Shown piece by piece: positions 3,538-57,910 of a stretch of DNA of 64,000 bases. The stretch is taken from NCBI GenBank assembly GCA_964016885.1, contig OZ024760.1, positions 1,550,001-1,614,000 of the forward strand, in the 5' to 3' direction. Made by a program: the position numbers and the translations under genes. The stretch's first letter is position 1. Every line of letters begins with the position of its first letter. The notes beneath the pieces were generated by a model, which saw nothing but the letters and a program-made list of their open reading frames with translations, made no database searches and was not told the DNA's origin. This stretch comes from Eledone cirrhosa. Lineage: Eukaryota.

Positions 3538-3573
3538 TTTCCTGATGAAGGGCTTATGCCCGAAACGTCGCAA
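3538..3573 (+). ncRNA. Minimal type I hammerhead ribozyme motif (Penelope-like)
   Basis: CTGATGA-A-GGGC ttat GCCC-GAAA-CGTC; palindromic ACGT stem III, GUC site; stem I imperfect. Confidence 0.7.
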
Positions 3574-4529
3574 CCACATTCCCTACTCACTAAATATGAA
3601 ACTAATACTATTTGTAACATGTACTCCCGTGTTGTCTGTTTTTTGTATTCCAAACTACATATACACATATATATACATCCATATATACATATACATACAT
3701 ATACATACATACATATACATACATATCTACATATATATATATATATATATATAACCCATGTGCAACCACGCAGCACGCCATTTTTCATATATTTATATTT
3801 TTTCCTCCGCTGCGACCTGTCTGTTTCTTTCTTACTGCTTCCCCTTTCTCTGTATCTCTCACCTTCTTTTTACCCCCCTCTGCCGGTCACTCTCTCTCGG
3901 CTGGCCTCCTCCTCACACTTTCACTCACTCACTCTCTGCTTCTCCCCCTCTCACTTCCTCCCGTTTAACCTATGTGAAATCCTTTTCTCGCTCACATCTC
4001 ACCCACTCTGATTTCACCGAACTTAAGTTCATAGATATCACGGACTTGTTTCTCCTCTTCCTCTCTTTCCGTTGCATTACCATCTCCGTTTGTTTACATG
4101 TGTCGCTCGCTTCACCCTAATTTACATGTCCCAATAACTTTCTTTAGTTATTGCTCGCACCAACCAGAGGTATATGATCTTTAAAGTGAAGAAATACCAA
4201 TGAAGGTTGGAAGATCACTGATGAAGGACTAATTTTATTCATATATATATATATATATACAACTATTTATTTCTTAATTTTTAAAATTAAATTTATTGTT
4301 CAACCCCTTAATCGTTAATTTTTAATCATGGATATATAAGATTGCTTAATCTTAAATTCATTAATTTTTTTAATTTCGGGGTTGGGAACTCTTAAAATTC
4401 AAATCCTTACTTAAATCTTAATATTTATATTATGTACTCCCTAAATCATTAACTTTATTAACCTGTTAAATCTTATTGAAAGTTCTTTTCCTTAATTTTT
4501 AATTTTTAATTTCTGAGTGTAGAACTTTA

Positions 4530-5200
4530 GTAGGGATTATCAAAACTTCGTAAATTTTCTGAAATTTTTTAACGAGATCTCTTAGAAAAAAAGTTTTTTT
4601 CTTTTGAAGGAATTTTTTAGGAAACTTTATATTTTTTTTTTTTTTTTTTTTTTTTTTAGTCTCTTAATCTCTTCTGGTTTGTTAAGTTTATTGGGGCTTA
4701 TAAGCTATATGCACTTATTGAGGGATTTTTTAAGGTGCTTCTACGAGATACCAAGTCTTTTACTTTTAATGCGTAACTTATAAATTCTCTAATTTTTAAC
4801 CTTCAATCCCTAACTCTTAGGCCCTTTTCAAATTCTCTTAACTCCCTATAACCCATCCCTTTTACAACTCCTACAACTAATATAAAAGAGCCCCCTTAGA
4901 ATATAGACCCCAAATATACAAGCTGAGCTGTTGATGTATACTGCTAATCTTGAGTGAAACGTTGATGTAAACAATGATCTTACAATCACCTGTTATATGC
5001 CTTGAAAAGTCCCACCATGGGGTCGGACGAAACGGCTGTCGGCAATAAACTTGTTATGATGTCATAATAGTTCCTTTGTTCTTTTTCATTAATATCTCTG
5101 CTCTGCTTATACGCATAGAGCTTAACTAGCTACCGTCGCATATTTGGTAGGTCAGGCGTGATCATCGCGATTCACGTACGGCCTACCATACATCTTGCTT
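4530..5200 (+). mobile_element. Decayed Penelope-like element 3' end (possible GIY-YIG remnant, then hammerhead and hairpin)
   Basis: Broken frames loosely resemble GIY-YIG (VGIIK ~ GIYK; LIFWFVKFI...LIEGFF...TFN); hammerhead at 4998-5044; hairpin 5145-5188; (TA)n flanks. Confidence 0.4.
4998..5044 (+). ncRNA. Hammerhead-like motif with variant core
   Basis: TGCC-TTGAAAA-GTCC(12 nt)GGAC-GAAA-CGGCTGTC-GGCA: stems I and II intact, GUC site, core UUGAAAA instead of CUGANGA. Confidence 0.6.
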
Positions 5201-5297
5201 ATATATATATATATATATATATATATATATATATATATATATGAATAAAATAATTCCAAGGCCATATTCAATTGGTTCAGGTTTATTACACCTGTTT

Positions 5298-5712
5298 AAG
5301 ACAATGTCACTGGATCGAGATCTTTGGCGCTATGCAGTTGTACAGAAGACCCACCTTCCGGTGCATACAAACCTACAGTCAGTAGGCACCTCTTAACTAA
5401 ATATACACCCCACCCTGCTCCATCCTCCCATTTCTGTTCACTGTAAAGTGGTTGTGTCAGTGACACACCAAAAAGCACCCAGTCCACACTGGAAAGTGGT
5501 TGAGTAGGGGGCATGATAAAAAGGCTCCCAGTCCACACTGTAAATGTGGTTGGTGTTTGGAAGGGCATCCAGCCATAGAAAACCTGCCGGGGACAGTTCT
5601 GTATGAGCAAGACACGGTCTCCCGACCAATCCCGCCTCAAGTGGAACAAAACCGTCCAACCCATGTTGGCGTGGATGATGGGCGTTAAACGATGATGATG
5701 ATGATGATGATA
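5298..5712 (+). mobile_element. Diverged RTE 3' fragment
   Basis: Encodes KTMSLDRDLWRYAVVQKTHLP (cf. end of main ORF), related 3' UTR, (TGA)n tail. Confidence 0.9.
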
Positions 5713-5940
5713 TTTCACTGAGGACTATCGGTTATGACAGCCCCAGGTGGTAAACCTATAAAACAATGAAATTACATAAAAAAAAACTTTAAGTTTGAAA
5801 AAGGTTTACTTTTCTTGCTGAGAATATGTGAACAAAAAAATCGATGGTAAAAAGGTGTGGTCAGCTTGTAAAATGGCTATTTCTCAGACATAAAATATGG
5901 TGGGGGTTGGTTTATATTCGAGTATATATAATATATATAT

Positions 5941-6279
5941 CATCATCATCATTTCATTTTACGTCCGCTTTTCCCTGCTTGCAAGGGTGGGACGGGAACT
6001 GGTTCTGGCTTGATTTCTACAGCTAGATGCCCTCCCTAACACCAACCTCATTTACAGTGAGTGCTGGGTGCTTTTTTGCCGTGGGACCTCCACGACTACT
6101 TTGCAGTGGAATGATAGGGACCCCAGTCCCTATCATCTCATTTCTACAGCTGAGTAAACTGGAGCAATGTGAAATAAAGTGTCTTGCTCAAGGAAACAAC
6201 ACATCACCCTGTCTGAGAATTGAACTCACAACCTTTCGATTGCAAGGCCAATGCTCTAACCACTAAGCCATGTGCCTCC
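5941..6279 (-). mobile_element. tRNA-derived SINE family 1 (CORE-like centre, RTE-derived 3' end)
   Basis: Minus strand: A box TGGCTTAGTGG, B box GAGTTCAATTC, CCTTGAGCAAGACACTT core, RTE-UTR-like GGTTGGTGTTAGG-AGGGCATC, (TGA)n tail; (TA)n flanks. Confidence 0.9.
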
Positions 6280-55155: not shown

Positions 55156-55236
55156 ATGAACTGGCCATTTTGGCGGATCTCGAACCATTCCGATCTGGCA
55201 GCCCTGCACCATGCTCTGGAACTCAGTTACCTCTAG
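55156..55236 (+). CDS. eya: Eyes absent terminal coding exon, copy 2
   Basis: Same sequence as 46364-46444. Confidence 0.93.
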
Positions 55237-55859
55237 CAGACTCGGTTCCAGTGGAAGGGGCAGGATGTTCCTTCAACCGCAAAAAAATCCTAGAAAAATC
55301 CCAGCAAGCTCAACAGTGGTTGCTGCTGTTGCTGCCACCACCACCACCACCACCACCAACATTTCATGACAGTATCAATACCAGCAGCAGCAGTAGCAAC
55401 AGCTCCTCTTCTCTTTGCCCATCACCTACTTACCTCTCCTCTCCCCCATTGTATCCAGCCCTCCTCCCATGTCCCCATATCCATCAGATTTGCTCACAAT
55501 TTCCCCCTGTCCTGCCCCGCGGCCCTGCCCATTACCTTCTACCCTCTTCGGCCCTTCTCTTGTCATTTAACCTCTCATCACCAAAAACACCATCATCCCC
55601 TCTGCAGCCACTTCTGTTGCCACCCTCACCCCTCTGCCTTTCATAAATGTTCCTCCTCGTTTTCTTTATATATTTTCTTCTTTCTCTTATGCTAAATCTG
55701 TGTGTGTGTGTGTGTGTGTGTGTGTGTATAGAGAAAGAGAGAGAGGGTGTGTGTGAGTTTAATATATGTAAGAGACCAGACCACTCAATAGAGGGTTGGT
55801 AGAGTTTAATGTAAAACAAGCAATAGCTAGGATGCAATATGGCTAAACATTATTTCATA

Positions 55860-56262
55860 GGGCGGTGTATTGGCAGTATCGGTAGGGGGTCGGGCGCCAT
55901 GCTTTGACGCATAGAGTTATGGCCCTTGCCATTCTGAGTTCAAATCCCGCCGAGGTTAACTTTGCCTTTCATCCTTACGGGGTCGATAAAATAAAAGTAC
56001 CAGTAATGTACTGGGGTAATTGCTGGCCTTGTGCCAAAAGTAGAAACAATTATTTCATAGGGTGATGGATTGGCAGTATTGGTAGAGCATCAGACACCAT
56101 GCTTTGACGCATAGAGTTACGACCCTTTATGATCTGAGTTCCAATCCCGCTGAGGTTAACTTTGCCTTTCGTCCTTACGGGGTCGATAAAATAAAGTACC
56201 AGTAATGCATTGGGGAGGGGGGGGGGGGGTTGCTGGCCTTGTGCCAAAAGCAGAAACAATTA
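55860..56262 (+). mobile_element. Two tandem SINE family 2 copies
   Basis: Two heads with B boxes and GGGGTCGATAAAATAAA motifs. Confidence 0.85.
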
Positions 56263-56441
56263 TTTCGTATGATTATGCTACAGCTATAGTTACACGAAGG
56301 TGCTTGGCTTAGTGGTTACAGAGTTGGACTTGCAATCTTCAGGTTGTGAGTTTCTATTAGGGTATATATGGTATATATATATGAGTTGTGACGTCACTGG
56401 CGCCAAGCTGTATCAGCTCAGCGTTTGCTTTTTTTCCCCCT

Positions 56442-57221
56442 TTGGACAACACCAGTGGTGTGGAGAAGGAAGCCCAGTATATATGGGTGACTGCTGGACA
56501 ACACCAGTGGTGTGGAGAAGGGAGACCAGTATACATGGGTGACTGCTGGACAACACCAGTGGTGTGGAGAAGGAAGCCCAATATACATGGGTGACTGCTG
56601 GACAACACCAGCGGTGTGGAGAAGGAAGCCCAATATACATGGGTGACTGCTGGACAACACCAGCGGTGTGGAGAAGGGAGACCAGTATACATGGGTGACT
56701 GCTGGACAACACCAGCGGTGTGGAGAAGGAAGCCCAGTATACATGGGTGACTGCTGGACAACACCAGCGGTGTGGAGAAGGGAGACCAGTATACATGGGT
56801 GACTGCTGGACAACACCAGCGGTGTGGAGAAGGAAGCCCAGTATACATGGGTGACTGCTGGACAACACCAGCGGTGTGGAGAAGGAAGCCCAATATACAT
56901 GGGTGACTGCTGGACAACACCAGTGGTGTGGAGAAGGAAGCCCAATATACATGGGTGACTGCTGGACAACACCAGTGGTGTGGAGAAGGGAGACCAGTAT
57001 ACATGGGTGACTGCTGGACAACACCAGTGGTGTGGAGAAGGAAGCCCAGTATACATGGGTGACTGCTGGACAACACCAGTGGTGTGGAGAAGGGAGACCA
57101 GTATACATGGGTGACTGCTGGACAACACCAGTGGTGTGGAGAAGGGAGACCAGTATACATGGGTGACTGCTGGACAACACCAGTGGTGTGGAGAAGGGAG
57201 ACCAGTATACATGGGTGACTG
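56442..57221. repeat. 52-bp minisatellite (~15 copies), probably expanded inside a SINE whose tRNA-like head is at ~56296-56353
   Basis: Unit TGGACAACACCAGTGGTGTGGAGAAGGGAGACCAGTATACATGGGTGACTGC. Confidence 0.9.
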
Positions 57222-57910
57222 TTGGTCTTCCACCAGAAACAAAATTCTGGGAATCCTTCTTGGTGCACGAATCCCATGGTCATGCTTGACCGAAACACGG
57301 GAGGGGAAGGAAGGATAATAGTTACATAAGGCATCACTGATCTCTTGCATCATGTGGAGTATCGTTCAGCCATGACAGTAGGGTTCTCTCCATGATGTCT
57401 CAAGTAGATTCCATGTGGTACTGTAAGCGCCGGAGGGGGGGGGAGAAATAATTATGATAAAAATCACATGAAACAATTTGTTGCCACTTTTGCATCCTAG
57501 CCATTGATTGCATTATATATATATATATATATATATATATATATATATATATATATATATATAATGTGTATTTAGAGAGAGAGAGGAACAGAGGAAGTGA
57601 CTTTGGGCAACTTATGAACTTATGAAAACTGCTCTGGGTAATCAGTGCCTGCCTAAATATTATACATAAGTATATATATATATTTATATATATATATATT
57701 TATATATATATATATTTATATATATATATATATTTATATATATATATATATTTATATATATATATATTTATTAAAATAACAGATTAAAGTTTAAGCAAAG
57801 AATCGCTGCTTTCACCCTTAACAGGATCTTCTTAAATATATATATATATATATGTGTGTGTATATATATATATTTATGTATATATATATATTATATATAT
57901 ATATACACAC

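Follow-up and report, generated by a model that had tools for sequence, protein, structure and literature searches.

The stretch analysed here (the window: 64 kb, positions 1,550,001 to 1,614,000 of the forward strand of contig OZ024760.1) comes from the 3.0-Gb genome of the animal Eledone cirrhosa, which is rich in simple repeats, and it carries part of the gene eya together with short islands of other sequence set in (TA)n runs. These islands are very probably members of at least ten families of Penelope-like elements (PLEs) and non-coding passengers, each with a predicted self-cutting hammerhead motif near its 3' end, and in two of the families, A2 and J, the motif is rewired (Table 1). The eya exons in the window, which we take to lie at ~27455, 29587, 39863, 40732, 43547, 44021 and 46360, were all but one placed with short motifs, and one exon matches EYA3 (E 6.9e-14). 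A further eya exon lies ~25 kb before the window start, so that the sites at 3.5-7.8 kb are intronic. A sequence-only reading of this DNA had listed eleven type I hammerhead sites and a core at 4218 inside and beside eya; all of them are present, and those at 3.5-7.8 kb are inside the gene rather than beside it.

Table 1. Hammerhead families, host gene and duplication in the window
Feature	Position	Strand	Description
Family A	3541..3570	+	Core, stem II and ACGT palindrome, ~1-bp stem I; 3' end (island 3475-3655) of a putative Neptune-like PLE
Family A2	4128..4229	+	S-G-C hammerhead fold with split stem II; predicted cut after 4174; unit 3755-4245
Family B	4998..5044	+	Type I, U3-A8; 3' end (4260-5200) of a putative Hydra-type PLE with ~3-kb 3' region
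Family C	6375..6435	+	Type I, stem II damaged in the window copy; putative Hydra-type PLE end
Family D	6662..6719	-	Type I; 3' end of a ~1.96-kb head-to-tail unit without a long open reading frame
Family E, copy 1	6847..6893	-	Degenerate type I (GAAG), inverted piece of the family tail before it
Family E, copy 2	7763..7807	-	5' stem I strand lost to TA run
Host gene eya	27455..46445	+	Seven exons in the window
Family J	27697..27799	-	Second S-G-C split-stem-II fold, absent from the sequence-only reading; 1,842 candidates
Family F	41030..41680	-	One 467-bp unit, 87-bp inverted 5' piece and 75-bp tail between TA runs
Family G	41706..41789	-	Type I, U3-A8, long stem II; putative Hydra-type PLE end (41686-42155)
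Family H	43818..43868	+	Type I layout, A4 core; putative Hydra-type PLE end
Family I	44595..44649	+	Type I hammerhead; putative Hydra-type PLE end
Second copy of 41029-46970	50945..55790	+	~99% identity, across N gap 46971-47170
Family H, second copy	57788..57833	-	Truncated inside the core by TA run

Type I motifs were searched for with a descriptor that accepted a CUGAnGA, UUGAnAA or CAGAnGA core, allowed an unpaired base beside stem II and demanded a stem I of at least 4 bp, and the window was compared with 100 local block-wise dinucleotide shuffles. The descriptor generated 10 matches in the window (6 distinct, four of them doubled by a 10-kb duplication of 99% identity), while the shuffles gave a mean of 0.1 and a maximum of 3. 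Since the descriptor had been tuned on the window, we also applied it to an unseen sample of the genome, drawn from 19 contigs as 40 10-kb stretches placed at round coordinates (399.8 kb), where it found 48 type I matches as compared with 0-3 in 20 shuffles. The excess over shuffles was ~50- to 100-fold and the density ~120 motifs per Mb, or one per 8 kb; extrapolation to the whole genome gave ~350,000 (bootstrap over stretches 210,000-510,000), a number of motifs and not of insertions, because an inverted pair is counted as two and damaged copies escape the descriptor. The sampled motifs fell into 15 sequence clusters, with 30 canonical, 10 A4 and 8 U3-A8 cores, and 41 of the 48 lay no more than 200 nt upstream of a (TA)5 run, as compared with 16% of random positions. 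When stem I strands were swapped between the 15 clusters, pairing of at least 4 bp was obtained in only 9 of 210 combinations.

Rfam found no hammerhead in the window at its gathering score, with only family F matching HH9 (E 3e-6, below the gathering threshold), as might be expected if the motifs were chance matches in AT-rich sequence. The excess over shuffles, the existence of families and the covariation described below led us to reject this explanation, to which we give practically no weight, and the counts in the window and in the unseen sample agree with the earlier claim that the motifs are not random. An early strict version of the descriptor had given 5 window matches, only so few because the 10.1-11.1 pair was demanded. 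The islands themselves had been called unique, which they are not, each having 499-4,333 first-look candidates in the genome; taken as a whole, the sequence-only reading was largely right in its observation and half right in its interpretation. Published counts, obtained with other descriptors and cited here, like all literature in this text, from excerpts of the papers named, amount to more than 6,000 hammerheads in Acropora, ~5,000 in Mytilus and up to 120,000 in axolotl (PMC7229834) and to ~9,000 in Xenopus (PMC4209133), and giant squid has 235 Rfam hammerhead matches (PMC6962438). No published description of such a motif density was found in the literature, subscription journals being outside the scope of the search.

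Most of the sites lie in eya introns, and one exon has H and I on either side of it in sense orientation, an arrangement that would suit motifs kept as intronic ribozymes regulating the eya transcript. However, the density at eya was not raised, as the 6 distinct matches in ~54 kb of the window and the 8 descriptor matches in the 100 kb upstream of it are in line with the 48 in the 400-kb sample; moreover, both strands are used and several copies are damaged. We therefore consider this regulatory role highly improbable, and nothing in our results suggests one specific to eya.

The individual sites differed in quality. Six of the eleven (4998, 6662, 41342, 41706, 43818 and 44595) passed the descriptor with at least 4 bp in stem I, whereas the remainder did so in part or not at all: that at 6375 passed a looser descriptor, with stem II damaged (14 of 18 relatives pass), that at 6848 has GAAG in place of GAAA and 3 contiguous stem I pairs, and those at 7765 and 57788 have lost the 5' stem I strand to a TA run, all four being damaged or truncated members of passing families. 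The site at 3538 has the core, stem II and the ACGT palindrome, with a stem I of essentially one pair family-wide. Many of the motifs, rather than being minimal as described earlier, have real stems III of 3-5 bp. Non-canonical cores were kept throughout a family, U3-A8 at 4998 and 41706 and A4 at 43818, and A4 replacing U4 is fixed in the very abundant family H (43818-43868) and occurs in the 10 sampled motifs counted above. Two further observations concern hammerhead-like sequence elsewhere in the window, namely a fold-back pair of cores on both strands at 28560-28700, each truncated at stem I and forming a further family that the sequence-only reading does not list, and a fragment of family G at 58338-58420 (+) that retains the 3' half of the hammerhead with a mutated GAAA.

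Among the genomic candidates of each island the 3' end is fixed and the 5' end ragged, and the 5' piece is frequently inverted. A coding link was scored when an upstream walk reached a reverse transcriptase (RT) and/or a GIY-YIG endonuclease (EN) on the hammerhead's strand at the same locus. Family A was joined to a GIY-YIG EN in loci L220, L222, L228 and L236, and EN or RT plus EN was reached from B in L201 and L203 (other B loci, L216 and L218), from C in L240, L241, L250 and L257, from G in L206, L207 and L215, from H in L280, L285 and L289, and from I in L208 (other I loci, L095/L102). Families A, B, C, G, H and I are 5'-truncated 3' ends of RT plus GIY-YIG elements, a linkage seen directly in these loci. 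Together with the 41 of 48 sampled motifs beside (TA)5, this upholds the earlier link to PLEs and the targeting of TA runs.

A CxCX5C linker precedes the EN in B (L201, L203), C (L250, L257), G (L206, L207, L215) and H (L289, L298), while family I has the same EN type with a linker that is degenerate in the one copy read. In translations read by eye, this EN is of the Hydra type, without CCHH and with CxxC and CxH beside a conserved E and N. In family A, a CX4CxxC linker and a CCHH-type, Neptune-like EN stand directly before the 3' region (L220, L222, L228 and L236, in broken frames), in keeping with the CX2-5CxxC linker and CCHH EN of Neptune-type PLEs; the family may be Neptune-like, with Nematis as the alternative, the walk stopping before the RT. 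A Pfam scan of four open reading frame (ORF) fragments found no family, and Atlas neighbours carry HTH_animal/RVT_1, which is a lead. A small RCTC...GAGY hairpin was also noticed 3' of the hammerhead in the tails of B (~5095-5125) and E; in a crude test it occurred in 20/20 loci of B and 7/18 of E, with A2, I and H near the 8% background.

No protein is encoded by four of the families (F, A2, D and E), which likely borrow PLE enzymes. They show the footprint of the coding families: the 3' end is fixed and is followed 45-160 nt beyond by a second end, the 5' piece is inverted, and copies stand head to tail. Family F carries a perfect type I hammerhead at 41342-41386, and its 30 best loci hold 467-bp tandem arrays with inverted pieces and tails, 99-100% identical; the 43-nt hammerhead has 4,872 exact copies genome-wide (control 0), the unit folds with z = -9.3 at a GC content of 36%, and the longest ATG frame is 20 aa. 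These properties fit non-long-terminal-repeat (non-LTR) retrozymes, that is, head-to-tail units of 150-500 bp with one type I hammerhead each, low GC and no ORF, and family F would on this basis be a young tandem retrozyme; a parent of F was sought among all fetched loci and none was found. Family D closes on itself as a 1.96-kb unit whose longest stop-free frame is 106 aa (L422), and upstream walks from it returned to its own tail without reaching an ORF. Family E is a non-coding unit of ~440 bp. In 17/20 loci it begins at the same point behind a TA run, which may instead lie in the interior of a longer parent. Tandem E units linked by a short TA run were sought with a pattern that had 0 matches.

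Closed or fixed-start non-coding units such as F, A2, D and E are what would be expected of a community of tiny, independent retrozyme-like elements without coding parents. As six of the ten families continue into RT/GIY-YIG genes at several independent loci, and as the ragged 5' ends are typical of truncation, such a community is an improbable account of the islands, and for A, B, C, G, H and I it was rejected outright, since their RT/GIY-YIG parents were found. The earlier description of tiny non-autonomous elements that protein-based annotation would miss is accordingly retained for F, A2, D and E and dropped for those six.

The core at ~4218 had been described as cut off by (TA)n. It belongs instead to a complete fold, that of family A2, in which GAAA and the cleavage-site strand lie upstream of CUGAUGA; relatives of A2 run past CUGAUGA into the next unit without a stem II or GAAA, and the core is therefore not cut off. 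In A2 and J the blocks follow one another as cleavage-site strand, GAAA and CUGAUGA (S-G-C), a non-circular permutation, and in place of stem II there are two helices formed with an upstream splint strand, one pairing the bases after A9 and the other those before G12, with an 8-bp hairpin between them. An additional helix joins the flanks of blocks S and C; the fold has seven helices. The A2 unit, of the tandem type and non-coding, measures ~495 bp in the window and 630-637 bp in relatives, with a 44-bp tail, and carries one low-complexity frame of 120 aa.

A strict S-G-C descriptor with a direct stem II found nothing in the window and 2 matches in the sample, as compared with 0-3 in shuffles. 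Without stem II, the descriptor found 2 matches in the window (4218 and 27697-27799), where 200 shuffles gave 0; in 1.84 Mb of A2-enriched loci it found 48, where 6 shuffles gave 0-2. The split-core fold is much rarer than type I, since the 400-kb sample held only 1 match; the exact three-block pattern of A2 was present in 6,447 copies (control 0). We aligned 27 non-redundant A2/J copies, dropping none and so retaining three with the upstream part lost and two misaligned rows. In this alignment 89.8% of cells paired, as compared with 77.7% in column shuffles and 29-46% in slid controls; 21 of 34 pairs changed on both sides, and all seven helices covaried. In the four helices outside the descriptor, 80-97% of cells paired and 13 of 23 pairs had changes in both partners. 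In three loci a junction ends exactly at the predicted A2 cut and restarts ~290 nt upstream, in one of them as a ~320-bp tandem, which is a hint of cleavage in vivo. Of 59 A2 copies, 4 start at the cut site after a TA run; this pile-up is ambiguous because of the TATA at the cut site, and we did not use it as support.

Covariation speaks for structure, not chemistry, and the A2/J fold could also be a conserved structure derived from a hammerhead that is non-catalytic and serves as a signal to which the RT binds. In agreement with this, there is no contiguous stem II, bases 10.1 and 11.1 are mostly unpaired, and Naiads, a PLE clade reported to be without a canonical hammerhead, multiply nevertheless (PMC8557442). 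On the other hand, every A2/J lineage retains CUGAnGA, GAAA, the A-U pair and a cut-site base other than G, although the descriptor demanded these, natural type-SGC hammerheads cleave in vitro (PMC10085705), and the junction falls at the predicted cut. A non-catalytic signal is thus a possible but rather unlikely reading, and we lean mildly towards the ribozyme: a non-circularly permuted hammerhead of Naiads, with stem II opened to a four-way junction by a splint, present in at least 6,400 non-coding passengers and cutting in vivo, in a genome that also holds the ~350,000 type I motifs. The fold is well supported as a structure, whereas its activity is predicted. The published 3' end of Naiad_Ovul, flagged 'HHR_half_core', has when read by eye the same seven helices in other letters, and the record printed before it in the supplement of PMC8557442 has the same helices and core, suggesting that the A2/J fold is likely the hammerhead of Naiad-clade elements. 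The split-core fold itself was not found described in the literature searched.

Several points weigh against a working A2/J ribozyme or temper the covariation. The missing contiguous stem II and the unpaired 10.1 and 11.1 may abolish catalysis, and one helix IIb pair fails to form in 14 of the 27 copies. The descriptor itself selected for stems I and III, the covariation counts are not independent because the 27 copies form ~six related lineages, and in block S rows L043 and L219 are out of register by two columns. The three junction loci have one common breakpoint and may represent a single event, and the putative Naiad parentage derives only from the fold common with published Naiad ends. 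Beside these, we noted an A2 sub-unit of ~290-320 bp (L075/L090, L076, L088), tandem and without catalytic blocks, that ends at the predicted cleavage site, as well as more diverged split-core families at L043:2002-2120(-), L219:1068-1186(-), L220:2587-2706(+), L249 and L280.

The remaining features of the window are less closely tied to the islands. The duplication doubles F (51258), G (51624), H (53878) and I (54663) and the last five eya exons with their introns, and is probably an uncollapsed haplotype; it may be an assembly artefact, possibly a real partial duplication. A long interspersed nuclear element (LINE) with AP-endonuclease and RT frames lies nearly intact at 1-2640, and a fragment 98.7% identical to it, at 44736-46020, is present in the first duplication copy only. 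A tRNA-derived repeat resembling a short interspersed nuclear element is abundant (5922-6291, 22348-22733, 28910-29289, 40216-40578 and others), with a weak tRNA match inside it at 22640-22697, and minisatellite arrays with periods of 48, 52, 24-26 and 21 bp lie in or near eya at 26592-27416, 56443-57225, 29686-34931 and 36955-39756.

The footprints and the cited papers together lead us to propose that read-through or element-driven transcripts would be cut by the hammerhead into units, those with a long stem III as monomers and those with a short palindromic stem III probably as dimers. The PLE endonuclease would then nick a TA run and the RT would copy the RNA from two start points on opposite strands, so that each insertion would have an invariant 3' end and a tail, together with a partner that is inverted and 5'-truncated. 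Arrays would come from templates that are circular or multimeric, and new TA runs and earlier insertions would attract further copies, giving piles. We infer cleavage, circular RNA, the matching of enzymes to passengers and the Naiad parentage of A2/J, whereas the sequences, the structure of the families, the linkage to RT/EN, the pairing and the covariation were seen directly. Most copies are old, truncated and probably silent.

This proposal has to be set against a number of contrary points. The self-cutting of the motifs is a prediction. The clade calls derive from motifs and not from an RT tree; the Hydra motifs RWK/DKT were not clearly seen (L218 has DKI), and most loci are without the N-terminal part. 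No family A copy reached a 4-bp stem I (0/20), no paper on the activity of the A4 core of family H was found in the literature, minimal PLE hammerheads cut weakly even as dimers (PMC4209133), and no parent ORF was found for D, E or F within limited walks.

If the split-core S-G-C fold is confirmed, it would be a new hammerhead architecture, with a topology outside the six defined block orders, and, as far as the literature searched shows, the first non-circular permutation from animal genomes; it would also answer why Naiads seemed to be without the ribozyme present in other PLEs. Together with the ~350,000 type I motifs, it would place this genome among the richest in ribozymes described so far, and any large gene would have several hammerheads on its sense strand. 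With a motif every 8 kb, ribozymes on the sense strand of introns must be either tolerated or purged by their hosts, and strand bias in annotated genes would therefore be a genome-wide read-out of in vivo activity.

Nine of the ten families are of known kinds, namely TA-targeting PLEs with hammerheads and retrozyme passengers. Hydra-clade PLEs have a CxCX5C linker, (TA)n insertion and hammerheads (Craig et al. 2021, PMC8557442 section 11), and Hydra-1_Obim of Octopus bimaculoides has a (TA)n target and a hammerhead (PMC8557442 supplement). Families B, C, G, H and I resemble this clade in the order RT then GIY-YIG EN, the (TA)n target, the type I hammerhead near the 3' end, the linker (degenerate in I), the truncated and inverted copies and, often, an extra base on both sides of stem II. 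Unlike in the reports on that clade, in the excerpts cited, at least five diverged families occur in one 64-kb window at ~120 motifs per Mb, 3' regions reach ~3 kb (B), and U3-A8 and A4 cores are family-wide. With the minimal metazoan PLE hammerheads (Cervera and de la Pena 2014, PMC4209133) the motifs here have in common that they are single and dispersed, from truncated PLEs, with an unpaired base after A9 and a palindromic stem III, and the U3-A8 variant is known from Cercyon elements of Schistosoma (PMC4209133); they differ in that many have a stem III of 3-5 bp and in that thousands per genome were counted there, with a different descriptor.

Family F is like animal non-LTR retrozymes (PMC7229834; Li, Clavereau and Pollet 2026, 10.64898/2026.07.22.740005) in being a low-GC, non-coding tandem unit with one type I hammerhead and strong folding, but its arrays sit in TA runs and have the inverted pieces and tails typical of PLEs; the D unit, at ~2 kb, also departs from the retrozymes in those excerpts. 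The A2/J fold has the seven helices and core of the Naiad_Ovul end (PMC8557442 supplement), although, unlike Naiads, A2 and J are short non-coding units, known here without linkage to a Naiad ORF. With type-SGC, that is, HRIMA-1 and variants (Eckert et al. 2023, PMC10085705), A2/J has in common the S-G-C order, pseudoknotted stems I and III, which covary here, and the core letters. A direct stem II (after A9/before G12) is absent; unlike type-SGC as given in the excerpt, the upstream splint pairs both with the strand that follows A9 and with the one preceding G12 and a hairpin stands in between, the flanks are held together by an extra helix, and the fold is found in animal retroelements, not environmental RNA, with cleavage predicted. 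A2/J is thus a variant of the type-SGC hammerhead rather than a member of that class.

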